Positions 88 through 53,457 of a stretch of DNA of 64,000 nt are shown piece after piece. Under the pieces are notes generated by a model that searched no databases, was not told the DNA's origin, and was given only the letters and a program-made list of their open reading frames with translations. Source of the stretch: Candidatus Campbellbacteria bacterium (lineage in GTDB: Bacteria; Patescibacteriota; Minisyncoccia; Phycocordibacterales; EsbW-18); NCBI GenBank assembly GCA_016699465.1, contig CP064977.1, positions 138,096-202,095 of the forward strand. The letters run 5' to 3'. Positions within the stretch are counted from its first letter, which is position 1. Each line of letters begins with the position of its first letter. The translations under genes were made by a program, and so were the position numbers.

Positions 88-95
88 TTGTCTAC

Positions 96-122
96 CTATC
101 CCACAGAAAGTTGTTGCCGAAG
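96..122 (-). repeat. 27-bp direct repeat reproducing the metK 3' end (reverse complement encodes FGNNFLWDR plus stop); copy 1 of the islet-flanking repeat
   Basis: ctatcccacagaaagttgttgccgaag matches 1474-1500 with one mismatch. Confidence 0.7.
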
Positions 123-217
123 ATTTATTTTAGTATCTCTTCAGGAATTGAAAAGGGGCGCCGCACACCGAAGTGTTTGGCGTCCCTTGAGAGCAGTTAC
201 CGACGTTGTGGTGTTGC

Positions 218-877
218 TTAGTCGTCGGCTTCGCTCATGATGCGCAGCAGGTCGAGGAACAAGTTGATGATGTCGAGGTAGAGCGACACCGCGACGTCGA
301 CGGCGTTGTCGAGTGTTGCCGGAATCTCGCTTGCTCGGTACATGTCGTAGCCGATGTAGAGCGAGAAGATGCCGGCGCTGATGTAGTCGATGATGCCGAC
401 GCCCTGAATCGCAGGGATGAAGATTCGAGCGAACGACACGACCACCAGGGCTAGCAGTGCCCCGAACAACGCGCCGCCGATGGAGCGGTAGAAGTTCGGA
501 AACAACAAGCCGGTGATGGCCATCACGATGGTCACCAATCCGGTCATCGTCGCCGCTCGTTCCACCAGACCCGGATGTAACTTGGTGTACATCGCGAGCA
601 GTGGCCCGATGATGGCGGAGATACCGCCGACCACGAGGTTGAACCCGACGAACGAGATGAGCGGGTTGTCGCTCTTCGCCGACATGAAAATCCCGACGAT
701 CGGAATCCCCAGACCGACGAGGAGTAGGGTGACGATGTTCGGCGTCCATCCAGCCGTCGTCTTGGCGATCAAGGTCGTGAAGGTAAACCCCCACGCCAAG
801 ATGGCGCCGAGAACGAAGTAGAACGCGCCGCGCGTCATCGTGTCTCCACCACTGCGGTTCCACACTGTCGATTCCAT
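218..877 (-). CDS. Bax-inhibitor-1/YccA family integral membrane protein (7 TM); the gene is markedly GC-rich relative to the rest of the window
   Basis: Hydrophobic multi-helix translation and acidic C-terminus typical of BI-1/YccA; the off-frame translation is Arg-rich nonsense typical of high GC; good ORF length. Confidence 0.55.
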   Translation of the reverse strand: MESTVWNRSGGDTMTRGAFYFVLGAILAWGFTFTTLIAKTTAGWTPNIVTLLLVGLGIPIVGIFMSAKSDNPLISFVGFNLVVGGISAIIGPLLAMYTKLHPGLVERAATMTGLVTIVMAITGLLFPNFYRSIGGALFGALLALVVVSFARIFIPAIQGVGIIDYISAGIFSLYIGYDMYRASEIPATLDNAVDVAVSLYLDIINLFLDLLRIMSEADD

Positions 878-981
878 CTTTCCTGCTCTCCTCTCTTGTG
901 CGTCTCCACATCACCACGATATGGAGGTATGTCTGGAAAAAATAATAACCGTTTATTTATGTTTTGTCAATCCTGTTCTCT

Positions 982-1386
982 CTACACCCTCTCGTTGGGT
1001 TGGAGGATGCTGAGGCGGTTGCCTTCGGTGTCGGTAAACGCAACAAATTTTCCAACGCCGGGAATGTCGACTGGAAATCCGTGAATTACTCCACCGTTTG
1101 CTTTCACACGCTCCATACCCTCTTCAATATTGGGAACTGCTATAACGACTGAGGGATGTTGTGCTTCAGGTTCAACGACGTGCTTTTGATAGAAGCCACC
1201 ATTGATGGTGCCTGGCGTTTTGACCATGCGGTTCTCATCAGTCTCCGTTGTGGTAACGGTGATGTAATCCCCCATCTCAGCTCCGAGTTGGTGTGTTTGC
1301 CAACCGAACGTTTTCTCATAAAAGGAGCGCATACGCTCTCGGTCTTCTGCGGGTAATTCAAAATGTACAACAGGATTTGGTTTCAT
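982..1386 (-). CDS. VOC/glyoxalase-bleomycin-resistance family protein
   Basis: 134-aa ORF of the size and general composition of the VOC/glyoxalase fold. Confidence 0.5.
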   Translation of the reverse strand: MKPNPVVHFELPAEDRERMRSFYEKTFGWQTHQLGAEMGDYITVTTTETDENRMVKTPGTINGGFYQKHVVEPEAQHPSVVIAVPNIEEGMERVKANGGVIHGFPVDIPGVGKFVAFTDTEGNRLSILQPNERV

Positions 1387-1469
1387 ATGTGATTGAGTAC
1401 AATCATGCCGTGAGGCCGATTTAGCAAAATGTATTTACTTCTAAAGCATTAAGTATACCATTTGCACAC

Positions 1470-2561
1470 TTATCTATCCCACAGAAAGTTATTGCCGAAG
1501 TGGCCGTACTTGGCTGTCTCGCGGAATTGGGGCTTCCTCAAATCAAGTGCCTCAATAATCGCACGAGGTCGCAAATCGTATCCAGTAATTTTTTCTTGCA
1601 CGCCGTCAATCATCGCAACTGCCATCAAAGGTTCAGCAACTCCTATCGCATACGCAATGTGCACAAATACTTCCTGCGCACCACGCTCTCGCAGATAGTC
1701 ACAGGCAATTTTGCGTGCAATGTATGCTCCACTCCGGTCTACTTTTGTTGCATCTTTTCCTGAGAACGCTCCACCACCCACAGGAATAGAAGGTCCGTAG
1801 GTATCCACAGCAATTTTGCGTCCTGTGAGTCCTGTGTCGGCATCAAATCCGCCGATGGTCCACGCGCCGTTTGGATTGCGCATCCAGACGTCCTCAATTG
1901 TTTTTCCCTCGGGTAGAAACGGCGTTACTTCTTGCGCCACAACTTCTTCAAGCACCACGTCACTCATATCTCCGCTCTCGCACAAGGACGTGAGGACGCA
2001 CGAGACTTTCCCATTTTCAACAGTCACTTGTGCTTTGCCATCATGCTTCCCCATCGCACGCACTAATGTTCGTGAGAGCACGACAGGCAACGGCATGAGT
2101 TCGGGTGTTTCAGCGGTTGCGTAGCCCACCATGATTCCTTGATCACCTGCGCCGTCATGGTCAACACCCCGACCAATTTCAGGACTCTGCGCCACAATGT
2201 TCACCGTGATACCAATAGGTGTGTCATATCCGCAGTCGCGGTACACATCCTGCGCTATTTTGCGGAAGTTAACGTGTGCGGTTGTGGTTACTTCTCCTGT
2301 AACGGTAATGAGCCCATGTCCGCCAACTGTTTCAACGGCAACACGTGCATGAGGGTCTTGTTCAAGACATGCGTCTAAAATGGCGTCTGATATTTGGTCG
2401 CACACTTTGTCAGGATGCGCGAGTGTCACCGCTTCTGCTGTTTGCATGGAAAGGGTTGGTTTTTCTAACACTCCTTTATCAACTAAGTGCCCGGTCATTT
2501 CTTCAACAATTTGTTCCTTTGATTTCCCTTGTGTGGAAATAAGTGCAATAAGTTTTTTCAT
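1470..2561 (-). CDS. metK: S-adenosylmethionine synthetase; an alternative start at 2447 would remove a 38-aa N-terminal extension
   Basis: AHPDKVCDQISDAILD N-terminal motif, GGGAFSGKDATKVDRSGAY P-loop-like motif, C-terminal HFGNNFLW. Confidence 0.9.
   Translation of the reverse strand: MKKLIALISTQGKSKEQIVEEMTGHLVDKGVLEKPTLSMQTAEAVTLAHPDKVCDQISDAILDACLEQDPHARVAVETVGGHGLITVTGEVTTTAHVNFRKIAQDVYRDCGYDTPIGITVNIVAQSPEIGRGVDHDGAGDQGIMVGYATAETPELMPLPVVLSRTLVRAMGKHDGKAQVTVENGKVSCVLTSLCESGDMSDVVLEEVVAQEVTPFLPEGKTIEDVWMRNPNGAWTIGGFDADTGLTGRKIAVDTYGPSIPVGGGAFSGKDATKVDRSGAYIARKIACDYLRERGAQEVFVHIAYAIGVAEPLMAVAMIDGVQEKITGYDLRPRAIIEALDLRKPQFRETAKYGHFGNNFLWDR
1474..1500 (-). repeat. Copy 2 of the 27-bp direct repeat; the genuine 3' end of metK
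   Basis: ctatcccacagaaagttattgccgaag. Confidence 0.7.
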
Positions 2562-4132: not shown

Positions 4133-5548
4133 CTAGGACAAGTATTTGAGGGCAGACTGCTCGTCTTTTTCAACAAAGATTTCAACGGCTCGCTTTGCCT
4201 TTTTAAGTAGGTTCTTTGCTTCTTTTCGTAGTCGCAAAGCTTCCAGTACTTTGTCTGCAAGTTCTTCTTGCTTCTTTTCTGACAACATCGGGATTTTGAC
4301 TTGCAAAGCACTTTCTGGCTTCAAATGGGCGATAACTGCACCACCTGACATACGTTCAATCTGGGCTTTGCAATAAAAAGAGTTGAGGACTAATGCAAGA
4401 TAGTTATTGTTTATCTTTACCTTCGGCTTGAGGCGTAGAAATGCACCGCTTACAATCGCATCAACGTCCTCACTGAGAGCAAACGAGATGCCGATTGTAC
4501 CGTCTTTTGTGAACAACACGTCGCCCTTCTTCGGTTTGTAGTTATTCTTCAACCCTTCGTAAAGTTCTTCTGAGATTTTTCTTTCAACATCTTCAATGCC
4601 GTAGATAGTGAAATCGGAAACACGCACAAAATCTTTTCCTTCTTCTGCGTATGCTTCGCTTCCAACTTCAACACCTTTCTTTATTGACACAATATCGCCA
4701 AGTTTTTCTTGTGGGATAGATGACACCTTTTTCACTATCTCATCGTATTTTGGTTGCCAATACTCGGCATCAAATCGGTTATCTACAAGACAATCACTGA
4801 AGTTTCGGACCGAGATTGCTTCTTCAGTTCCTTTGTATCCTTTAAGGTTTATTTCTTTGAGAAGCATCTGCTCGGCCTCATCGTACCTTTCTTTTGAGAG
4901 AAGAAGCTTCGTATGTAGGGTATCTAATGCATCTCGGAGCTTATTTTTTAGCCCCTCAGCAGCTTCTGGCATAAGCACACTCTCAATATCAGAAACATTC
5001 AACTTTAGTTGAACATTTCCACTTGCCATACGAAAGATTTGCTTCTGTCCAAAATCTGACAACAAAAAGAAAGCGATGTATGCCTTGTCTATTTCATCGG
5101 TCTTTGCAGAAAACGCTAGACCTATATTGTTCTCGCTTATCGCAACTTTTCCGATTTCCTTAGTGATGATACTTAGACGACCTACGGTGCCGATTTTTGA
5201 AAAAACGATGTCGCCAACTGAAAGCTGGTACTTTTTGAGTTTTGTAAAATTGTCATCGCTAACAAATACCATTTGTTCTTTATCAAGAAAGATGTCTTTG
5301 ATGTCTGAAATACGAACAAAGGGGTATCCTTCGGTAAGATAACTCTCACTCTTGAAGAAAGACCCAAACGGTCCACTGAAAACCCTTACATCGTAAACAC
5401 CTTTGATTGTCCGTGCTTTCTTCTTTACGAGAGTTTCAATCTTGTTCAGATAGACGGGGTCGTAATACTCGGCATCCAAACGCCTATCAGCCTGAGCCCT
5501 GCTTAGATTAATGATTGAAAACGATGCTGTTTGTAAGTTTGGTTGCAT
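4133..5548 (-). CDS. hsdS: Type I restriction-modification specificity subunit
   Basis: Two target-recognition-domain halves each preceded by an (R/F)xDAEYY-type conserved motif; 471 aa; 2-nt gap to hsdM. Confidence 0.85.
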   Translation of the reverse strand: MQPNLQTASFSIINLSRAQADRRLDAEYYDPVYLNKIETLVKKKARTIKGVYDVRVFSGPFGSFFKSESYLTEGYPFVRISDIKDIFLDKEQMVFVSDDNFTKLKKYQLSVGDIVFSKIGTVGRLSIITKEIGKVAISENNIGLAFSAKTDEIDKAYIAFFLLSDFGQKQIFRMASGNVQLKLNVSDIESVLMPEAAEGLKNKLRDALDTLHTKLLLSKERYDEAEQMLLKEINLKGYKGTEEAISVRNFSDCLVDNRFDAEYWQPKYDEIVKKVSSIPQEKLGDIVSIKKGVEVGSEAYAEEGKDFVRVSDFTIYGIEDVERKISEELYEGLKNNYKPKKGDVLFTKDGTIGISFALSEDVDAIVSGAFLRLKPKVKINNNYLALVLNSFYCKAQIERMSGGAVIAHLKPESALQVKIPMLSEKKQEELADKVLEALRLRKEAKNLLKKAKRAVEIFVEKDEQSALKYLS

Positions 5549-5550
5549 GG

Positions 5551-7476
5551 TTATTTCAGAAAGCCAAGACCTTGCTCTTTACCCCAAGCGACAAACGCTT
5601 CAGCTATTTCGTCAAGGTCGCTTAGATATTTAGGATTACCGTCTGCATCTTTCACAATTTGACCTTCTTTGTCCTTCTCAAAAATATAATCGCCACTGTT
5701 GTTTTTGAAGGATTGCTTTTGAGTAGCAAAGAAAATCGGATAGTCGGCTACCTTCGGGCTACCGCTCTTATCAAGTTCTTCCTCGGTCCATTTTTGCAAG
5801 AAGATGATTGAGGTCTTTGTTCCTGTGTGTGGCTTGAACGAGTTTCCGTGAAGTCCTACGACCGCAAGGATGCGTGCCTTCTGCATTATGTGTTTACGCA
5901 CATATTCTTGGCTCGTGTTGTTGAAGATGCCTTGAGGTAAAACAACCGCCAAGCGACCGCCTGCCTTTACGAAATCAAGGTTGCGTTCAATGAAGAGCAG
6001 GTGTCGCTCAACCTTGTTTTGAAGTTTGCCTTTAGCGTTCTTTCCAAGCACATACTGAGCCAAGAGATGCTTCTCTTTGATTTCACCTGCAAAAGGCGGG
6101 TTGGCAAGAAGTATGTCAAAGCCGAGATGTTGAAGTGTGCTTTGGTTATGTCGGTTCGTTTCAAAGTCGGCAAACTCACGGACCAGTTTGAGGTCTGAAA
6201 GTTCGCTCTTGAAACGGTCGGACCATTCTCGTGTGTCAAGCGATGATGACTTGAAGATGTGGCTTTTACCATCGCCTGCGATGAGCATAATGGCACGGCT
6301 GATTTTGGTTGATTTCTCGTCAAAATCTATGCCCCAAAGATACCTGCTTGCGTATTCTTTGCGTGCTTCCATGGTAGGTAGGTTTTTCCAAACGTACTGC
6401 ATGGCGTGGACCAAAAACCCTGCACTACCGCACGCTGTATCTATTACATACTCTTTCTTTTGTGGGTTGAGCATCTGCACACACATATCAATCACAACAC
6501 GAGGTGTGAAGTATTGACCTTTCTTTCCTTTGGCTACATCAGGGAGTAGGTACTCAAACGCTTCATCAATAATGCGTAGATTTGCACCGAACAAGCGGAC
6601 ATCTTGAAGTTCGCCAACGCACACAGAAAGATGCTCAGGACTGAGTTTTATTTCTGTGTTTTTTTCAAAAACATCAGACCACTCTGCTTTTGCTTCTTCA
6701 AAGAGTCCATCAATGATACGTTTTGTTTCTTCAGGTTTTCCTGTCGGACTCTTTCGGAAATGTAGCTCTTCATTCGGTCGGCTCAACGCTTCCTTCTCAT
6801 CATAAAGCTTGACGTAGATGAGTTTGAAGATTTCGTCAAAACTGTCGTTTCCTGAGTTTGCAAGCACGAGCTCTTCAAGGGTCTTGATTGTTTCCTTCAA
6901 GTCATCTTCTCGTAGGTCCTTCAGGGTCTTACGCTTTGCGAGCACATCTTCAACCTCTTCATCTGAAGCAGGGATGTCATCCAGCGTGTCATCAAAATCC
7001 TTCGGGTAGGGACGATAGAGGATGAGGCGTGTCTTACCGTTTACTGCAACGCCTACAGGAGCACCTTCAGCATTGAGATACGACTTCAATTGTTGAACAT
7101 CATTCTCTTCATTGGGAGCTTTTACCTCAATAATGATTTTTGGGGTAATGCCGTCTGGTCGGTACACAACAATGTCAGCACGTTTTATCTCACGTCCAAA
7201 ATTGACGTGCTTTTCAAGTTCAATGAGGTCTTTAGGGTATTTGTAGTGTTTTGTGAGCTTTACAAGATAGAGTTGTCGGACGATTTCTTCAGGTGCACAT
7301 TTTCCTGTCTTGGCATTGTAGACAAGCTTCTCTTCATCCAGCTTTGAAATAGCTTTGATGTAGAACTTACCCTCGTCTTTTTCGTAAATGTCTATCTTGG
7401 ACAAATCATCAAACATCAATAGGTCTTGTTCAGGATTTTTGAAGATTTTATTTAGGATTTGTTGTGTTGTGTTCAT
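5551..7476 (-). CDS. hsdM: Type I R-M N6-adenine DNA methyltransferase subunit with an N-terminal HsdR_N-like domain
   Basis: TPRVVIDMCVQML ... DTACGSAGFL (AdoMet site) and LLANPPFAGE (NPPF motif). The N-terminal ~130 aa (KRADIVVYRPDG ... IIIEVKAP) resembles the type I restriction enzyme R-protein N-terminal domain. Confidence 0.8.
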   Translation of the reverse strand: MNTTQQILNKIFKNPEQDLLMFDDLSKIDIYEKDEGKFYIKAISKLDEEKLVYNAKTGKCAPEEIVRQLYLVKLTKHYKYPKDLIELEKHVNFGREIKRADIVVYRPDGITPKIIIEVKAPNEENDVQQLKSYLNAEGAPVGVAVNGKTRLILYRPYPKDFDDTLDDIPASDEEVEDVLAKRKTLKDLREDDLKETIKTLEELVLANSGNDSFDEIFKLIYVKLYDEKEALSRPNEELHFRKSPTGKPEETKRIIDGLFEEAKAEWSDVFEKNTEIKLSPEHLSVCVGELQDVRLFGANLRIIDEAFEYLLPDVAKGKKGQYFTPRVVIDMCVQMLNPQKKEYVIDTACGSAGFLVHAMQYVWKNLPTMEARKEYASRYLWGIDFDEKSTKISRAIMLIAGDGKSHIFKSSSLDTREWSDRFKSELSDLKLVREFADFETNRHNQSTLQHLGFDILLANPPFAGEIKEKHLLAQYVLGKNAKGKLQNKVERHLLFIERNLDFVKAGGRLAVVLPQGIFNNTSQEYVRKHIMQKARILAVVGLHGNSFKPHTGTKTSIIFLQKWTEEELDKSGSPKVADYPIFFATQKQSFKNNSGDYIFEKDKEGQIVKDADGNPKYLSDLDEIAEAFVAWGKEQGLGFLK

Positions 7477-7945: not shown

Positions 7946-8476
7946 TTATATTAATTTCAACCTTTCCAGTCTGATACTCATTGCAGAGATAGAAACATTA
8001 AAAATTTTTGCACACTCCTCTACATCTTTGAGGGTTGTCCATGCATCTTGAACCAATTTTGTTGGCATTATTAATGCAGCCGCAAAGTTATTTGCCTCAG
8101 TTTCAATTTTTGTAGTTGCAGCTGCATCCAAGCGAAATAGCGCATTGGATCCGTCCAAAGAGTTTTCTCCAATATCTACCAATAAATTATCATTGGTTTT
8201 AATTTCATCTTTATGCAAAAAGTAGTGCCCTATTTCATGAGCTATGGTGAAATTTTGTCTTGTTGCTGGTTTGTTTTTGTTGACGATAATCCTGAACTTT
8301 TCTTCAGTTGTTAAAAAGATGATTGCACCAGAAATTCCATGGTCAAATTCAGCCAGAACAATTTCCAAGTCACCTTTGTCACCAGTAATTCTTTCATATG
8401 GAAAAGGCGATAATCCTAGTGGATTATACTTAGCAGCTAGATCTTCAGCATATGCACAAATCTCCTCTTTGGTCAT
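7946..8476 (-). CDS. ImmA/IrrE family zinc metallopeptidase (DUF955)
   Basis: HEIGHYFLH HEXXH motif in the ImmA/IrrE context. Confidence 0.7.
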   Translation of the reverse strand: MTKEEICAYAEDLAAKYNPLGLSPFPYERITGDKGDLEIVLAEFDHGISGAIIFLTTEEKFRIIVNKNKPATRQNFTIAHEIGHYFLHKDEIKTNDNLLVDIGENSLDGSNALFRLDAAATTKIETEANNFAAALIMPTKLVQDAWTTLKDVEECAKIFNVSISAMSIRLERLKLI

Positions 8477-8535: not shown

Positions 8536-9621
8536 TTACACCCCCTCCTTCTTCAATTCCTCAATGAGCTCCTTAGCATGTTTTGAAAGCTTCTCCGGCA
8601 CGATGAAGTGGACCGTAATGAGTAGTGAACCTCGTTTGTTGTCGCCATGGGGTACACCTTTACCTTTTACGCGAAGTACTTGGTTTGGTTTTACGCCTGC
8701 AGGAATGGTGACATCAATACTGCCGTCGAGTGTTTCAATGGTCTGTACCACACCCGTGAGCGCATCGGTGAGCTTAATGTTTAAATCCATGAGCAAATCA
8801 CTTCCCTGTTTGCTGAATACTTTGTGTGACTCAACGTGTATTTTGACGTACAAATCGCCCGCAGAACCGTTTTGAATTGCTTCACCTCGGCCTGTGAGAC
8901 GAATCATTTCTCCATCTTCAATACCTGCAGGCACAGCAATGCGTACTTCTTCTTGCTCTTTCACAATACCTGTTCCCTTACACTTGTGACATGGTGTTTT
9001 GTACTTCTCCCCTTTGCCGTGGCAGGTGCTACACGTCGTAGTTGTTTGGAAGGTGCCGAAGAGTGATGTGCGTGTTTCGTGAAGCTTCCCTTTGCCGTCA
9101 CATGTTTTGCAGACGTCTTTTTCACTTCCTGGTTCGCCTCCGGTGCCTGTGCAGACACTACAAATGTTGTTCTTCGTAACGAGCACCTTTCTTTCAGTGC
9201 CAAAAATAGATTCTTTGAAGGTGAGCTCTATATCAATGGACACGTCTCGCCCTCGACGAACACGGTTGCGCATACTTCCTGCACCAAAGATGTCGCCAAA
9301 AATATCTCCAATATCAAATTCAAAGTTACCCGCGCCACCTTGTCCTTGGGTGAACTGAGAGAAATCAAAGCCGTCAAATCCAGAGAATCCTTGTGCTCCT
9401 CCTGCATTGTTTGCAAAGCCACTGCCGTACTGATCGTACTGCATGCGCTTGGTGCTATCGGAGAGCACGGAGTATGCTTCGTTGATTTCTTTGAACTTTG
9501 CTTCGTTGCCTCCCTTTTTGTCAGGGTGGTGTTCGTGGGCAAGTTTGCGGAACGCCTTTTTAATCTCGTCCTGTGAGGCGTTTCGTTCTACCCCGAGTAC
9601 GTTGTAGTAGTCTTTAGACAT
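8536..9621 (-). CDS. dnaJ: Chaperone DnaJ
   Basis: J-domain with HPD, Gly/Phe-rich linker, four CxxCxGxG zinc-finger repeats. Confidence 0.95.
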
Positions 9622-9725
9622 AGTGTGTAGATTGTAATATGAGACACAAAACTGCAGTTATTGACTTTGTTGGCAATTATAACATAATAGAAACAGGTTG
9701 AACATAGGAAGAATGGAGAAATGGC

Positions 9726-10037
9726 ATGCCAACATATCGGTCATGGGGACAGGTATTCAATCCAAGCTTTCGCCACTCAGGCGGCGATGCATGTCCATCC
9801 TGCCTTTGGGAGTTGAGCGGGTGGGCCCAAGACGGGACCCAACTCCCTAAGGGGTATTGGACATACGTCGTCGGCTTTACGCTCGATGCACCACCTTCTG
9901 TGTGGCCCGACATTGTTGTCGGTGCGCTCATCATCGAGTGTCCACAGTGTTTCGAGAAGTTCTGGTTTCACTGTACGAAGGAAATGCTGAAAACCGCCGT
10001 CAGGCTGGGCGCCTGGCCCCCAGCGAATTCCGACTAA
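9726..10037 (+). CDS. GC-rich small hypothetical protein with two CxxC motifs (CPSC, CPQC), antisense to the heat-shock operon
   Basis: GGAG Shine-Dalgarno 8 nt upstream of the ATG, own hairpin plus T-run terminator at 10024-10067, GC content clearly above flanks. Confidence 0.35.
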   Translation: MPTYRSWGQVFNPSFRHSGGDACPSCLWELSGWAQDGTQLPKGYWTYVVGFTLDAPPSVWPDIVVGALIIECPQCFEKFWFHCTKEMLKTAVRLGAWPPANSD

Positions 10038-10067
10038 GGGTATATCCCGAGGTCGGAGTTTTTCTTT
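10024..10067 (+). terminator. Hairpin tccgac/gtcgga plus T-run ending the small + strand gene
   Basis: ttccgactaagggtatatcccgaggtcggagtttttctttt. Confidence 0.45.
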
Positions 10068-10285
10068 TAGTATGGGTTTTGACGGCGTTTCTGGCGTAGT
10101 CCTAGCATTCGTGTGCGAGATACGGTATCAACAGTGCGCGCAATAAAGGTGGATGGCGTACGATACGTCGGTCGTCCTTTCTTTGAACCAACTTTAGAGT
10201 GAACCTTCATGAATACAATAACAAATATCAAATTTCAAATAACAAAGGAATGTACTTTTTGCTATTGGATATTTGACATTGGACA

Positions 10286-12178
10286 TTACGATTTATCGTT
10301 GCTTTCTTCTGAATTTACGTCTGTAGGTTCTTCTTTCTTTTCAGCACCGCCTTCAGCAGGTGCACCTTGCTCAGGTTGCGCCTTACTCATTGCCTCACCA
10401 ATCTTTTGCATCTCATTTGAAAGCTCAGTTGTAACTCCTGTGATGAGAGCGATATCTGTTCCTTCGAGTGCCTTTTTGAGAGCGTCTATTTTAACTCGGA
10501 CACCACTTGCAACATCGGCTGGAACCTTGTCACCTGCATCTACAAGTGCCTTGTCTGCGAGTGCAATAAAGTGATCAGCATTGTTGCGTGCGTCTGCAAG
10601 CTCTTTCTTTTTCTTGTCTTCGTCAGCATGCTTCTCTGCGTCTGCCTGCATGCGCTTGATATCGTCTTCTGAGAGAGCTCCACTTCCTTCAATTTTGATG
10701 GATTGCTCTTTGCCTGATGTTTTGTCCTTTGCCTTCACTGTGAAGATACCGTTTGCATCAATATCAAAAGATACTTCAATTTGAGGCATACCTCGGCGTG
10801 ATGGTGGAATACCGTCCAAGATAAATCGTCCGAGTGTGCGGTTGTCTGTTGCCATTGGTCGCTCACCTTGCACCACGTGAATTTCAACAGATGTTTGGTT
10901 GTCGGATGCTGTTGAGAATACCTGTGACTTACTTGCGGGAATGGTTGTGTTCTTATCAATCAATTTTGTGGCAACTCCACCGAGTGTTTCAATACCAAGT
11001 GAGAGTGGTGTCACGTCGAGCAAGAGCACGTCACGAACGTCTCCTTGCAAGATTCCAGCTTGAATTGCTGCACCAACAGCCACCACTTCATCAGGGTTGA
11101 TGTTTCGGTTTGGTTCCTTGCCAAAGAACTCTTTAACAGCGTTTTGAATTGCTGGCATGCGTGTCTGTCCTCCAACGAGCACGACTTCATCAATTTCAGC
11201 AATTTTGAATGGAGAATCTCCCATCACTTGTTTGGTAATGGTGATAGCGCGATCAACAAATTCTTGAGCAATTTCTTCAAGTTTTGAACGAGTGATTTTG
11301 AGCAAGAGGTGACGAGGACCTGAACTGTCTGAGGTAATGAAAGGAATGTTGATTTCAGTGTCTGTGGTTGTTGAGAGCTCGTGTTTTGCCTTTTCTGCAG
11401 CTTCGTCGAGACGCTGGAGTGCGAGTGGGTCCTTTGAAATATCAATACCACTTTCCTTCTTGAACTCATCGACGATGTAGCGAACAATTTTTTGGTCGAT
11501 GTCGCGTCCACCGAGGTGACTGTCTCCTCCTGTTGCCTTTACTTCCACAACGCCATCACCTACTTCGAGTACTGAAATATCAAATGTTCCTCCTCCGAAG
11601 TCGAAGACGACAATCTTTTCGTTAGCTTTCTTATTCAAACCGTAGGCAAGTGCTGCGGCCGTTGGTTCGTTGATGATGCGCAATACCTCAAGACCTGCGA
11701 TTTTACCAGCGTCTTTGGTTGCCTTTCGTTGTGAGTCGTTGAAATATGCAGGAACGGTAATAACTGCTTGTGTGATGGTCTCACCAAGCTTTGCTTCAGC
11801 ATCAGCTTTGAGCTTTGAAAGAATCATTGCTGACACCTCTTCTGGACGGTAGACGCTGTCATTCATTTTGACACCCGCTCCTCCATCCTCTGTTTGTACA
11901 ATTTCAAATGGCACCGCTGTCTTTTCTTTCTTGACGGTATCTTCATCAAAACGGTGTCCCATGAGACGCTTGATGCCGTAAATGGTGTTGCGAGGATTGG
12001 TGACAGCTTGTCGACGTGCAATCAGACCTGCGAGTCGCTCGCCTGTCTTTGAAATAGCTACGACAGATGGTGTGGTGCGTCCTCCTTCGTTGTTTTCAAC
12101 AATACGAGGCTCACCTCCTTCCATAACTGCCATTGCGCTGTTTGTTGTTCCTAGGTCAATACCAAGTACTTTTGCCAT
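10286..12178 (-). CDS. dnaK: Chaperone DnaK (Hsp70)
   Basis: [16 protein letters not shown], full-length 630 aa with acidic C-terminus. Confidence 0.97.
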
Positions 12179-13999: not shown

Positions 14000-14977
14000 T
14001 TACTGTCGGAGGATAATACCATAGTTTGCAAGGGCTCGGCGAATTTCCTGCAATCCCTTGTCTCCAAGACCTTCAACTTCTAACAAATCAGCTTCTTTCT
14101 TTCGTACGAGACCTCCTACAGTGCGGATGTTTGCACTCGTAAGCGCATTCTCTGTTCGTGTTGAAAGGTCAAGTGATTCAATACGTGTTTTGAGGAATTC
14201 CTTTGCATCTTCATCTGCGTTTTCTGCTTGCGATGTTTCTGTTGTTTCGCCTCCTTTAACTTCGTGCACCACAGCTTCTTCAAAGTTTTCTTCTTGGAAG
14301 CCAACGATTGAACGGAGCTGTTGAATCATAGTACTGATTGATCGTTCAAGTACCGTACGTGGAGCAATTGTACCATCTGTTTCAATAAACATTTTGATGC
14401 GGTTGAAATCTGTTCGATCACCAACGCGCATGTTTTCAACTTCGTAGGTTGCTCGGCGAATAGGTGTGAACGCTGCATCAAGTACGATGGTACCGATTTC
14501 AACACGGTCACGATGAAGGTTTTCCTTTGGAACGTATCCGAGACCTTTTTCAACGTGCATTTCAATCGTAAGTGTGTTTTTTCCTGTAAGCTCGCAAATG
14601 TATGCGTCTGGGTTGAGTACTGTGAGTTGTCCAGGAACGGTAATATCTTTTGCAGTAATGTGTGCTGGGCCCTTTGCGGTCAATGTGACCATTTGTGGCT
14701 CATCTGTTGTCATTTCAAAACGAATTTGTTTGAGGTTAAGCAAAATGTTAACCACATCTTCTTTCACACCCTCAATCGTTGAAAATTCATGAGGAACACC
14801 ATCAATTTTAACTGCGGTAATAGCAGCACCTGGAATAGATGACAAAATGATACGGCGGAGAGAGTTACCAAGCGTGTGGCCATATCCCGGATACAATCCG
14901 TCAATTTGGTACATACCGGCGTTACCTTTCTCGGTGATAACTTTTGGTTGCGATGGCAAATGTATTGTGTAGTCCAT
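14000..14977 (-). CDS. rpoA: DNA-directed RNA polymerase alpha subunit
   Basis: LRRIILSSIPGAAITAVKIDGVPHEFSTIEGV, alpha-CTD at the end. Confidence 0.95.
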   Translation of the reverse strand: MDYTIHLPSQPKVITEKGNAGMYQIDGLYPGYGHTLGNSLRRIILSSIPGAAITAVKIDGVPHEFSTIEGVKEDVVNILLNLKQIRFEMTTDEPQMVTLTAKGPAHITAKDITVPGQLTVLNPDAYICELTGKNTLTIEMHVEKGLGYVPKENLHRDRVEIGTIVLDAAFTPIRRATYEVENMRVGDRTDFNRIKMFIETDGTIAPRTVLERSISTMIQQLRSIVGFQEENFEEAVVHEVKGGETTETSQAENADEDAKEFLKTRIESLDLSTRTENALTSANIRTVGGLVRKKEADLLEVEGLGDKGLQEIRRALANYGIILRQ

Positions 14978-16077: not shown

Positions 16078-16458
16078 TTACTTGAGTTCAACCTTACGTT
16101 TTCCTGAACCCATAGTCTTACGTACGTTTCCACGAACTGTTCGTGAATTTGTTTTTGTGCGTTGACCACGAACAGGTAGACGGCGACTGTGGCGCATACC
16201 ACGGTATGAACCAGCATCTTTCAATCGCTTAATGTTACCAGACACTTCTCGTTTTAAATCTCCCTCGAGCACGTATCCTTCGAGTGCCTTTCGAATTGTA
16301 TTTTCTTCTGCTTCGGTAAGATCTGCCGCCTTTTTATCTGCAGGAACCTTGGCAACCGCGAGAATCTTGAGCGCGCGCGCACGACCGATACCGTACACTG
16401 CAGTGAGTGCGAATTCCATCTGTTTCTTATCAGGAAGTGTGATACCAGCGATACGCAT
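16078..16458 (-). CDS. rpsM: 30S ribosomal protein S13
   Basis: MRIAGITLPDKKQMEFALTAVYGIGRARA. Confidence 0.95.
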   Translation of the reverse strand: MRIAGITLPDKKQMEFALTAVYGIGRARALKILAVAKVPADKKAADLTEAEENTIRKALEGYVLEGDLKREVSGNIKRLKDAGSYRGMRHSRRLPVRGQRTKTNSRTVRGNVRKTMGSGKRKVELK

Positions 16459-16520
16459 AAATGATATTAGAAATTGAACGTTAAATTAGTTATGTGTTTC
16501 AAACAATGAAGCAAAAAACG

Positions 16521-16634
16521 CTATCCTTGACGCTGTTTGTGTCGAGGATTTTCACACACAACACGAAGATGTCCGTTGCGGCGGACAAGTTTACATTTGA
16601 TACAACGCTTTTTAATGGATGACTTGACTTTCAT
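16521..16634 (-). CDS. rpmJ: 50S ribosomal protein L36 (not in the ORF track; 37 aa)
   Basis: Manual translation of the minus strand gives [37 protein letters not shown] with the L36 C4 zinc ribbon. Confidence 0.85.
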
Positions 16635-16664
16635 AAAAAACTGTTTTCTTTTGACGTTCTTTGT

Positions 16665-16696
16665 AGAGATACAAAAAGGCGTCTAGTCCAGACGTC
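16665..16696 (-). terminator. Hairpin (ggcgtct/agacgtc) plus U-run between infA and rpmJ; terminator or attenuator
   Basis: 7-bp stem with one G-U, followed on the minus strand by tttttgtatc. Confidence 0.35.
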
Positions 16697-16784
16697 TTCG
16701 TAGGACGCATTCGCCCAAAACAGAAAGACCCGAACAGAATAACACAATCATTTTCAGGGCGCAACACCTTCCCTATCCCCACGG

Positions 16785-51588: not shown

Positions 51589-53457
51589 CTACATCCCCGC
51601 CAGCTGTTGTTGGAGTAGTGCCACGAGTTGTTGAATCAGAGAAACAACCTGTACTTTGATATCAGCGATGAGTTTCGTTCGTTCGTCAGGAGTGAGAGGT
51701 GTGTCGGATGTGGGTGGTAGTAGTGGAGATGGTGGTGGTGTAACGGTATGTGGTTGAGTGGTGGTACGAGTGCTTCCGCCACTTCCTCCATTGGTGTTTG
51801 AGGGTGAGTCATTAGCGGTGAGGGTACAGGTGTAGGTGGTGTTGAGGGACATGGTGAGAGTTCCATCTGATGCACAGTCGCCACCCCAGGTGATGTCATA
51901 GGTGGTGCCAGCGGGTGTTGCGTGGGTGAGCGTATGGGCGGTGGCGAGAGTCGTGGTGGCGACTGCGCTGGTGATAGGGAGACCATCAAGGTAGAGGGTG
52001 AAGTCTGCTACCTCTGCAGTACCACGGTCGTCGTTGGTGAGTGTGGTGGTGACGGTGAGGGTTGGTCCAATGTCGTCATTGGTGACGGTACATGCATACG
52101 TACTTCCCGCCTCCATGGTGATGTCACCGTTTTCGTCACAGTCTCCGCCATATGTGACGGCATACGCAGGGTCTTCTGTTTCGGAGATGGTGTATGAACC
52201 TGCTGACAGTGTGGTGGTGGCTACGCCACTGTCGATGGAGACACCATCAACAAACAACGGAAAGTCCTCGACGGCGAGTGTTCCTCCGTTGTCGTTGGTG
52301 ACTGTGGTGGTGATGGTGAGGGTCGGAGAAGAGGGCGGGTATGCAAACTTAAGATCAGCGTTGGTGGTGTCGTAGTAGCTTATGAGCGGAACGTCATCGG
52401 TGTCGAGAAAGATTGATGGGTACGTACCAACAGTACCCGATGAGTCAACAGTTTCAGTGGTGTTCGTCGAACAATCCGCATTGGTGCACTGGAGAAGCTC
52501 AAGATCGCCGTCCGCATCGTCGTAATATGCGATTCGAGCGAAGCCATCAGACCCCATGGCGGAAGATATACCCTGCCCCGCACCTCCCAACGGATCAACA
52601 ATGGTGCTGGTATTTTTCGTTGAACAATCGGCGTTGGTGCACTGAACAAAGCGTAATGTGCCACCACCGTAATAATAAATAATACGAACAAAACCATCCA
52701 AACCAAGAGAGAGTCCCGTGTTCACTAACCCGAGATTATCTGAATCAACAATCGTGATGTTTTTTGTTGAACACGACGCATTGGTACACTGAGCAAATTT
52801 CAAAAGAGCGTTATACGAATCGTTGTAACTAATACGCGCGAAACCATCGCCACCAATAACAAGAGACGTACCGTCCCCAAGCAGGTCGCCTCCGGGATCA
52901 ACTCCGGTGTCAACCACCGTAGTGACCCGCGTCGAACAATCGGCATTGGTACATTGAATAAATTTCAAACTATTAGGAACAAAGTCATCGTAACTATTGT
53001 ATGAAATGCGCGCGAAACCATCCCCTCCCATCGCGATAGACGTGTATCTTCCGACAGAACCAGTCGAATCAATGGTTGTTATGACATTCGTCGAACATGC
53101 GGCATTAGTACACCGAACAAATTTGAGATCTTTGTTTGTAAAGTCGTTGTACGCAATGCGTGCAAAACCATCAGCACCTATCGCAATAGACGTGTATCGC
53201 CCAACAACCCCTGTTGAGTCGATTGTTGTGACAACCTTTGTTGAACAGTCTGCATTCGTACACTGAATGAATTTGAGGTTCGTATTGGTAACATCGTAAT
53301 ACGCGATGCGCGCAAAACCATCCAAACCACGTGCGCTAGATACATACTGTCCAACGTTTCCCGTCGAATCGAGCGCTGTTGTTGTCCACGTCGCCGCAGA
53401 AACAAGTGATGGAACACTAATAATTAAAAACGCGACAACAAATAGAAGTTTTTTCAT
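51589..53457 (-). CDS. Secreted repeat protein: signal peptide, about eight ~46-aa propeller-like repeats each with a Cys pair, two ~85-aa beta-sandwich-like repeats, low-complexity Pro/Thr linker and a C-terminal helix
   Basis: Repeat unit TTIDSTGxVGRYTSIAxGxDGFARIAYxDxTNxDLKFxxCTNAxCST; C-terminal PTLTxTTTxTNDxxGT ... GGDC ... TYxCTxT repeated twice. Confidence 0.6.
   Translation of the reverse strand: MKKLLFVVAFLIISVPSLVSAATWTTTALDSTGNVGQYVSSARGLDGFARIAYYDVTNTNLKFIQCTNADCSTKVVTTIDSTGVVGRYTSIAIGADGFARIAYNDFTNKDLKFVRCTNAACSTNVITTIDSTGSVGRYTSIAMGGDGFARISYNSYDDFVPNSLKFIQCTNADCSTRVTTVVDTGVDPGGDLLGDGTSLVIGGDGFARISYNDSYNALLKFAQCTNASCSTKNITIVDSDNLGLVNTGLSLGLDGFVRIIYYYGGGTLRFVQCTNADCSTKNTSTIVDPLGGAGQGISSAMGSDGFARIAYYDDADGDLELLQCTNADCSTNTTETVDSSGTVGTYPSIFLDTDDVPLISYYDTTNADLKFAYPPSSPTLTITTTVTNDNGGTLAVEDFPLFVDGVSIDSGVATTTLSAGSYTISETEDPAYAVTYGGDCDENGDITMEAGSTYACTVTNDDIGPTLTVTTTLTNDDRGTAEVADFTLYLDGLPITSAVATTTLATAHTLTHATPAGTTYDITWGGDCASDGTLTMSLNTTYTCTLTANDSPSNTNGGSGGSTRTTTQPHTVTPPPSPLLPPTSDTPLTPDERTKLIADIKVQVVSLIQQLVALLQQQLAGM

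Follow-up and report, generated by a model that had tools for sequence, protein, structure and literature searches.

A composite insertion that duplicates the end of metK in a Candidatus Campbellbacteria genome

Introduction

Why does the 3' end of a housekeeping gene occur twice, 1,378 bp apart, in the small genome of a Candidatus Campbellbacteria bacterium, and how did the two genes that lie between the copies get there? The question is raised by the left edge of a 64,000-nt stretch of contig CP064977.1 (positions 138,096 to 202,095 of the forward strand; hereafter the window), where the last codons of metK, encoding S-adenosylmethionine (SAM) synthetase, recur downstream of that gene, beyond genes for a VOC-family protein and a membrane protein of the Bax inhibitor-1 (BI-1) family. 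The initial annotation of this locus, made from the letters alone, saw in it a decayed islet of foreign DNA that had been integrated site-specifically and had possibly come from a GC-rich actinobacterial donor. Gene gain and loss in the tiny genomes of the Candidate Phyla Radiation (CPR, or Patescibacteria) are poorly documented, and the locus offers a clean example that can be resolved to the base.

Results

The end of metK is duplicated

The metK gene is located on the minus strand at 1470-2447 and encodes a protein of 325 aa, counted from M39, with the Pfam N, M and C domains. The mechanically defined open reading frame (ORF) reaches 2561; the start is probably M39 at 2447, because the NCBI protein (QQR82911.1, 325 aa, 100% identical) and the homologues are 325-330 aa long. 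A repeat search identified a 30-nt direct repeat at 93-122 and 1471-1500 (28/30 identical, 93%; spacing 1378), with a 27-nt core at 96-122 and 1474-1500 that contains one mismatch; with the stop codons counted in, the copies extend over 92-122 and 1470-1500 (31 nt, three differences). The repeat of the metK end with its in-frame stop, as initially reported, is thereby confirmed, and a comparable repeat was found in none of 100 dinucleotide-preserving shuffles (expected by chance, 0.00). Read on the minus strand, either copy translates to FGNNFLWDR followed by a stop. The three differences between the live copy and the downstream one, AAT/AAC, AGA/AGG and TAA/TAG, are all silent; by a rough estimate, three random changes would all be silent third-position ones with a chance of about 1/27. 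Such silent-only divergence is what would be expected if both copies had been real gene ends while they diverged.

The copy at 1470-1500 (minus strand), nine codons and TAA, is the end of the live gene and resembles an attL attachment site. The copy at 92-122 (minus strand), with the same nine codons and TAG, resembles an attR site and is now non-coding; a stop codon ends the frame upstream of it (EILK*IFGNNFLWDR*). Like the flanking repeats of integrative elements at gene 3' ends, the repeat overlies the end of a conserved gene, here the final nine codons, and it encloses the 1,378 bp downstream of metK, where VOC and BI-1 are the only genes. The metK, BI-1 and VOC proteins are identical to QQR82911.1, QQR82637.1 and QQR82638.1, respectively, from a Candidatus Campbellbacteria contig of 811,376 bp.

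For comparison, an independent assembly was available from Logan (SRR11674038, contigs L001 and L002). It is 100% identical to the window across both junctions, and the structure is therefore not a mis-assembly. The two Logan contigs break at 1391-1411, between VOC and metK, where they overlap by 21 nt. This break falls within sequence that is contiguous with VOC in a related contig, L177, and may reflect co-existing strains in which VOC has another context.

The downstream copy is the displaced original end

Just upstream of the repeat, metK is identical at 60 of 60 positions to its counterpart in the nearest relative, L092, and the two diverge from 'GATAG' onward. The live gene ends in AGA TAA GTGTGC and continues into unrelated DNA. 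The remnant at 92-122 ends in 'GAT AGG TAG A', which is the metK ending of L092; another relative, L093, also has AGG. It is thus the remnant that retains the ancestral ending, whereas the final bases of the live gene were supplied by the insert. We conclude that a segment of 1,378 bp was inserted into the last 30 bp of metK in this genome of about 0.8 Mb, and that the inserted DNA brought along its own version of the nine final metK codons and the stop. Since the insert supplied a replacement end, metK is intact, and the displaced original survives as a dead remnant. The proposal that an insertion duplicated the gene end and restored the reading frame thus finds support. Just beyond the remnant, on the plus strand at 51-75, the terminator scan found hairpin 1, a GC-rich stem-loop with a T run behind it (9 GC pairs, then ATTGTATTTT). 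This hairpin is part of the original metK-downstream DNA and probably the terminator of a convergent 114-aa gene to the left of the window, whose ORF is visible in the L002 extension.

In every relative sampled, variable DNA begins exactly at the stop codon of metK. This codon is followed by VOC in the window, by a gene for a 262-aa unknown protein in L092, by a DUF4406 gene in L093, by a Ser hydrolase gene in L218 and by a 132-aa ORF in L219. BI-1 was found beside metK in none of 80 related genomes, nor in L092, L093, L218 or L219; VOC occurs near metK among those relatives only in L093. The proposed comparison of metK-downstream regions was therefore borne out in that a different gene follows the stop each time and BI-1 is never beside metK, and failed to produce an exact empty site. 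The variable region as a whole runs from dnaJ (8536-9621) to the window start and holds genes for an M78 peptidase, type I restriction-modification, a NUDIX protein, metK, VOC and BI-1; in relatives this stretch is occupied by different restriction systems and different small genes. Outside the variable region the window consists of core genome, with ribosomal protein genes, rpoA/B/C, the sigma-70 gene, dnaG and grpE-dnaK-dnaJ.

The inserted segment is composite

The VOC gene (982-1386, minus strand) encodes a 134-aa protein of the glyoxalase/bleomycin-resistance fold that matches Pfam PF00903 with E 1.6e-08 (35.4 bits against a cut-off of 20.6). It had been counted among the foreign DNA, which is contradicted both by its normal composition and by its relatives: homologues lie in the same variable region in L177 (97% aa), L178 (87%) and L093 (76.5% aa), the last of these, whose metK is 82% aa identical, carrying VOC on the same strand as metK and 2.3 kb downstream of it. 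Nucleotide identity between L177 and the window is 88% for dnaK/dnaJ, 94% for VOC and 96% for the NUDIX gene, and the VOC homology spans only window positions 990 to 1435. Accordingly, of the 83-nt spacer between the VOC start and the metK stop (1387-1469, minus strand), 1387-1435 travels with VOC and 1436-1469 is unique to this junction. In L177, VOC is followed after 16 nt by a decayed metK 3' remnant of its own, TTCGACAATAGTTTTCTGTGGGATAGGTAA, which matches the metK end at 26 of 30 positions, a match with an estimated chance of about 1e-7 for a 17-kb contig. BI-1 does not follow VOC in L177, and to the right of the remnant this contig differs in sequence from the window. In these alignments VOC emerges as a member of the flexible gene pool of the clade that is linked to a metK remnant.

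The BI-1 gene (218-877, minus strand) encodes a membrane protein of 219 aa (QQR82637.1, 'US12 family protein'; BI-1/YccA, TMBIM) and matches Bax1-I (PF01027) with E 1.6e-25 (90.5 bits against a cut-off of 34.1) over the full length, residues 21-214 aligning to profile positions 11-207 of 207. In its length and its conserved C-terminal motif it is a typical bacterial BI-1/YccA/YetJ protein; it stands apart in belonging to a CPR-specific subclade whose members are often far GC-richer than their host genomes. The gene is preceded by a sigma-70-type promoter at 942-970 (minus strand; TTGACA, 17 nt, TATTAT; 11/12 consensus matches) and followed by an intrinsic terminator at 147-186 (minus strand; GGGACGCC...GGCGCCCC, then TTTTCAAT, by the terminator scan). 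The stretch 147-988, comprising promoter, gene and terminator, is 92% identical at the nucleotide level to L083 and L084, contigs of another metagenome in which the promoter is kept almost base for base, the terminator is conserved as well, and both the genes upstream of the unit and the convergent downstream gene differ from those of the window. A gene of L177 is 90% identical to the downstream gene of L083, which places L083 in the same genome group as the window. The unit sits there in a different context, downstream of a putative decayed VOC 3' remnant, for which the base count on the alignment (27/45) is suggestive and not proof. The homology with L083 stops at 147, and the AT-rich spacer of 24 nt between the BI-1 terminator and the metK remnant (123-146, minus strand) lies beyond it; the L177 alignment is ambiguous here.

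The BI-1 unit at about 147-988 is thus an independent, self-contained transcription unit with its own promoter and terminator, and the bracketed segment is a composite of VOC and BI-1 as separable modules. The view of a single foreign islet does not hold, since the BI-1 unit has another context in L083 and is absent after VOC in L177. Composition tells the same two parts apart. The GC-rich tract extends from about 150 to 900, and BI-1, with 59.2% GC and 84% GC at third codon positions (GC3), is the most extreme ORF of the 64 kb (window GC 43.9%; mean GC3 of the window ORFs 0.40, standard deviation 0.095), in agreement with the initial estimate of about 60% GC, far above the background. VOC (49.1% GC, GC3 0.49) is within one standard deviation of the window ORFs, close to metK (49.5%, 0.445) and dnaJ (GC3 0.48). 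Therefore only about 840 bp of the 1,378-bp segment are compositionally foreign. Among likely real genes, the next-highest GC3 after BI-1 belongs to a 170-aa ORF at 60506-61018 (minus strand; 54% GC, GC3 0.66), which has no Pfam match.

Origin of the BI-1 gene

Where did the GC-rich gene come from? The 120 best BI-1 homologues are 56-98% identical; the named ones, listed as 'US12 family protein' or 'Bax inhibitor-1 family protein', are all either from Parcubacteria/CPR or unclassified 'bacterium' entries of metagenome-assembled genomes. The close homologues with a named source are all Parcubacteria/CPR proteins of 56-79% identity, whereas homologues with high-GC flanks are just 38-42% identical, so that a high-GC actinobacterial donor, as had been suggested, is unsupported. 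At 54% identity or more, the gene exceeds its flanks by 8 GC points on average and by up to 32, and homologues with at least 70% identity have 57-59% GC whatever the GC content of the host (38-50%); more distant members of the family track genome GC. Two of the extreme cases are L120 6001-6645 (58% GC against 26% in the flanks) and L123 3617-4261 (61% against 42%).

Between the window and L083, BI-1 has 26 synonymous and 4 non-synonymous codon changes; the gene is therefore functional and under purifying selection. When the substitutions are polarised, 11 run from GC to AT and 2 from AT to GC (one-sided binomial p ~0.01); the composition of the gene is thus not at equilibrium and is moving towards that of the host, and selection holding the GC content of the gene high, which was also considered, does not fit this excess. 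These patterns fit an older acquisition of BI-1 from a GC-richer CPR-type source, before the lineages of the window and L083 split.

Single-gene islets of about 60% GC occur also in L177, a contig of about 43% GC, at 10001-10800, 14001-14600 and 16401-16760. The third of them, a 119-aa ORF, ends with a near-identical terminator of the BI-1 type (16714-16753 against window 146-186, 90%). The common terminator hints at a possible shared pool of GC-rich cassettes.

Recombinases and insertions in relatives

Neither in the islet nor among the approximately 55 ORFs of the window was there a match to Pfam families of integrases, resolvases or transposases, and the 588 nt to the left of the window, taken from Logan contig L002, contain no ORF of recombinase size. 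The absence of an integrase from the islet was thus rightly noted; the idea that one might be found just upstream of position 1 failed, that stretch holding only the convergent 114-aa ORF. A blastn search of the islet against phage records returned nothing, and one against plasmids only a 56-nt match to a BI-1 motif in Pseudomonas megaplasmids; the best relative of BI-1 on viral contigs is 45% identical. An exact-pattern scan with the metK-end sequence gave 0 matches in metagenome contigs of the Joint Genome Institute (JGI) and 0 in IMG/VR viral contigs. Further metK 3' remnants downstream of metK were found in none of ten relatives. On either side, among the window ORFs and in the 588 nt to the left, no tandem integrative and conjugative element (ICE) or integrative and mobilizable element (IME) of the same att specificity was found. 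The hallmarks of an integron are missing as well: there is no integrase-family match in the window, the repeat is a gene end, and no dyad symmetry is seen in it by eye.

Two more repeat-flanked insertions are present in the related contigs. In L177, the VOC 3' end recurs as a 47-nt repeat (7306-7352 and 9769-9815, 43/47) that brackets 2.4 kb with genes for a DUF5680 protein, a NUDIX protein, a Ser hydrolase and an N6/N4 methyltransferase and no recombinase; the displaced VOC-end copy there is closer to the VOC end of the window than the live end of L177 is. In L092, a perfect 25-nt repeat of the metK leader, including the ribosome-binding site (9656-9680 and 9963-9987), surrounds a small helix-turn-helix (HTH) gene. 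Given three unrelated repeat sequences and no recombinase with them, short-homology recombination is a more economical explanation than three dedicated integrases.

Discussion

How the segment was inserted

Our preferred explanation, which we hold to be somewhat better than an even bet, is a Campbell-type single-crossover insertion through short homology at the metK end, with a composite cargo of VOC and BI-1. A single crossover would have joined chromosomal metK and a circular DNA whose only homology to it was the metK end of about 30 bp. With an L092-like host end (AAT ... AGG TAG) and AAC ... AGA TAA on the insert, an exchange inside the 17-nt identical core AACTTTCTGTGGGATAG would produce a live copy consisting of host-left (AAT) and insert-right (AGA TAA) and a remnant consisting of insert-left (AAC) and host-right (AGG TAG). 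The empty-site form would then read full-length metK ...GATAGGTAG directly followed by ACAAGCAAAATACAATGCCC, and the circle junction would read ...CTAAAATAAATC-TTCGGCAA...GATAGATAA-GTGTGCAAATGG. The crossover would be the work of general recombination on short homology, and the substrate would have been a circularised fragment from a related strain with VOC already downstream of metK. That general recombination acted, and not a dedicated integrase, is what we infer with the least certainty.

Several observations weigh against this reconstruction. The empty site, metK followed by ACAAGC and hairpin 1, was not found in any relative, and none shares the right-hand flank, so that we infer the insertion and do not see it as presence against absence. 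The crossover is placed by three polymorphic sites only, and a homology of 30 bp is close to the shortest that RecA-type recombination can use. L177 has no metK upstream of its VOC, for which a secondary deletion must be assumed; VOC may have arrived first with BI-1 to follow, or both may have arrived together. Finally, the occurrence of a remnant beside VOC in two genomes with unlike right flanks could equally be due to a metK-targeting recombinase encoded elsewhere in the 811-kb genome.

This last point leads to a serious rival, though one that we consider distinctly less probable: a decayed site-specific element, for which a tyrosine or serine integrase recognised an attB site over the metK 3' end and was later lost together with most of the cargo, or else an integrase-less satellite mobilised in trans, in the manner of the cis-mobilizable elements discussed below. 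The attP of such a putative recombinase would be the junction AAATC-TTCGGCAAC...GATAGATAA-GTGTGC. Att sites classically show a repeat over the 3' end of a conserved gene together with a functional substitute for that end, as here; the metK stop is the exact edge of variable DNA in all the relatives; and the remnant accompanies VOC in both the window and L177 although the right flanks differ. Moreover, the identity of VOC (94% nt) and NUDIX (96%) exceeds that of dnaK/dnaJ (88%), as expected, in the case of VOC, for a cassette that repeatedly targets metK. Site-specific integration, favoured in the initial annotation, is nevertheless not supported, as no recombinase was seen in the islet, among those ORFs of the 64-kb window that were searched or in the adjoining 588 nt on the left, the att sequence is unmatched in viral and JGI metagenome contigs, the islet matches nothing in phages and a 56-nt BI-1 motif alone in plasmids, the relatives lack further metK remnants downstream of metK, and their insertions use unrelated repeats of 25 and 47 nt, which would require several integrases. 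A further and rather improbable possibility is that of integrase-free cassettes with which short copies of gene ends (the metK 3' end, the VOC 3' end, the metK leader with its ribosome-binding site) travel along as attachment sites. Each insertion would then rebuild its target gene and leave a dead copy of the gene end, and VOC, together with its imitation of the metK end, would form one such unit that had entered metK independently in two lineages or more.

An unlikely course of events is homology-facilitated illegitimate recombination or a template switch, in which linear DNA of a relative would have been anchored in metK and its far end joined 30 bp upstream of the stop, with no circle involved. 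CPR bacteria are thought to take up DNA, and extended homology on the metK side only, with metK 87.6% identical to L092 along its length and the last 60 nt before the repeat perfect, speaks for such an event. On the other hand, sliding identity of metK against L092 and L093 has no shift that would mark a donor tract; the left edge of the remnant (TTCGGC) is the exact start of identity, a coincidence for an illegitimate joint and the expectation for a homologous crossover; and the complete 30-nt remnant in L177 would be left unexplained. That there was no insertion at all, in which case the repeat would have arisen by chance, through mis-assembly or as a functional motif and the high GC of BI-1 would be a selected family trait, is very improbable and largely refuted. 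Its one attraction is the uniform 57-59% GC of the closest BI-1 homologues across hosts of 38-50%: high GC is common to this clade and therefore not by itself proof of recent transfer. Yet none of the 100 shuffles gave such a repeat, the independent assembly agrees at both junctions, the remnant matches the metK end of relatives including the stop codon, the 11:2 excess of GC-to-AT changes places BI-1 off equilibrium, and distant family members follow the GC content of their genomes.

Comparison with known systems

The architecture itself is already known. Elements that target the 3' ends of protein genes and supply a new end include e14 and phage 21 in icd of E. coli, ICESt1 and ICESt3 in fda of streptococci, and SCCmec in rlmH/orfX. 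The metK islet shares with them a short direct repeat over the last codons of a conserved housekeeping gene, a gene kept intact by a near-identical end, and a displaced end that persists as a remnant with silent differences. It differs in that no integrase or excisionase was found, in its size of 1.4 kb with two cargo genes, in its CPR host, and in its site, since we found nothing in the literature on metK as an att site or on islands in Campbellbacteria. Decayed, integrase-less remnants of an ICE or IME that are still bounded by att sites have been described as cis-mobilizable elements (CIMEs) and microCIMEs (PMC7563491). Like these, the metK islet is bounded by att-like direct repeats, lacks genes for recombination and transfer, and could in principle be mobilised only by a recombinase acting in trans. 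However, an element counts as a CIME if it descends from a recognisable ICE or IME of the same att specificity or has accreted in tandem with one, and no such parent was found here. As the search for the defining integrase and for a parent element was negative, we do not file the islet in either family; in its workings it resembles a Campbell-type insertion.

Campbell-like integration through short homology, together with homology-facilitated illegitimate recombination in natural transformation, is usually known from laboratory cases with hundreds of bp of homology. Such integration leaves a copy of precisely the homologous segment at either side of the insert, as here, and needs no dedicated recombinase, and it accounts for the differing repeats (metK end, VOC end, metK leader) around insertions in related genomes. 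In contrast, homology at these loci amounts to 25-47 nt, and the insertions occurred in nature and are fixed.

The islet is small and its cargo unremarkable, and we regard it as a real but fairly ordinary trace of gene shuffling. The lead worth following is the recurrence, in these CPR genomes, of insertions that duplicate gene ends and lack a recombinase. The variable region by dnaK-dnaJ and metK differs gene by gene between close relatives, and the insertions in it are flanked by duplicated gene ends of 25-47 nt; if this pattern holds genome-wide, it would suggest short-homology recombination, perhaps on DNA taken up from relatives, as a main route of gene flux in these organisms. The GC-rich BI-1 clade also provides a caution: a GC anomaly does not identify a gene as derived from an (actinobacterial) host.

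Other features of the window

Upstream of metK, a SAM-I riboswitch is located at 2612-2718 on the minus strand (Rfam RF00162, full model, 53.8 bits against a gathering cut-off of 44.4), and the terminator of its expression platform was found by the terminator scan at 2569-2586. In L092 (9287-10001) the SAM riboswitch, 96% identical to that of the window, is split from metK by the 95-aa HTH gene; an HTH gene likewise lies upstream of metK in L218. The type I restriction-modification system of the window consists of HsdS (4133-5548) and HsdM (5551-7476) and is located, together with an M78/IrrE-like peptidase gene (7946-8476), beside dnaJ. Its place is taken in L093 by a type III-like system and in L177 by Dcm with an EcoO109I-type system.

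A conserved hairpin, TGAAACGGCC...GGCCG, occurs at 1423-1452 of L002, to the left of the window, at 2521-2551 of L083 and at 9829-9864 of L177, with two compensatory changes in the stem. In each of the three genomes it stands ahead of a convergent gene located at the variable region's far edge, and these convergent genes differ. The likeness of the L002 copy to those of L083, where it follows BI-1, and L177, where it follows the VOC remnant (20/23), is no more than suggestive. A dispersed repeat was considered for this hairpin and rejected, as no further copy of it occurs in the window.

Two repeat arrays occupy the right-hand part of the window. A 622-aa ORF (51589-53457, minus strand) with only faint Pfam matches contains, at 52465-53296, a repeat of about 150-160 nt in six copies. 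From 61683 up to the window end at 64000, more than 20 copies of a 63-nt unit stand in tandem, corresponding to 21-aa repeats; they fill the adjacent minus-strand ORFs 61724-62560 and 62564-63712, for which a weak match to HNH_5 is the sole one in Pfam, and have 51-53% GC and a GC skew of +0.33.

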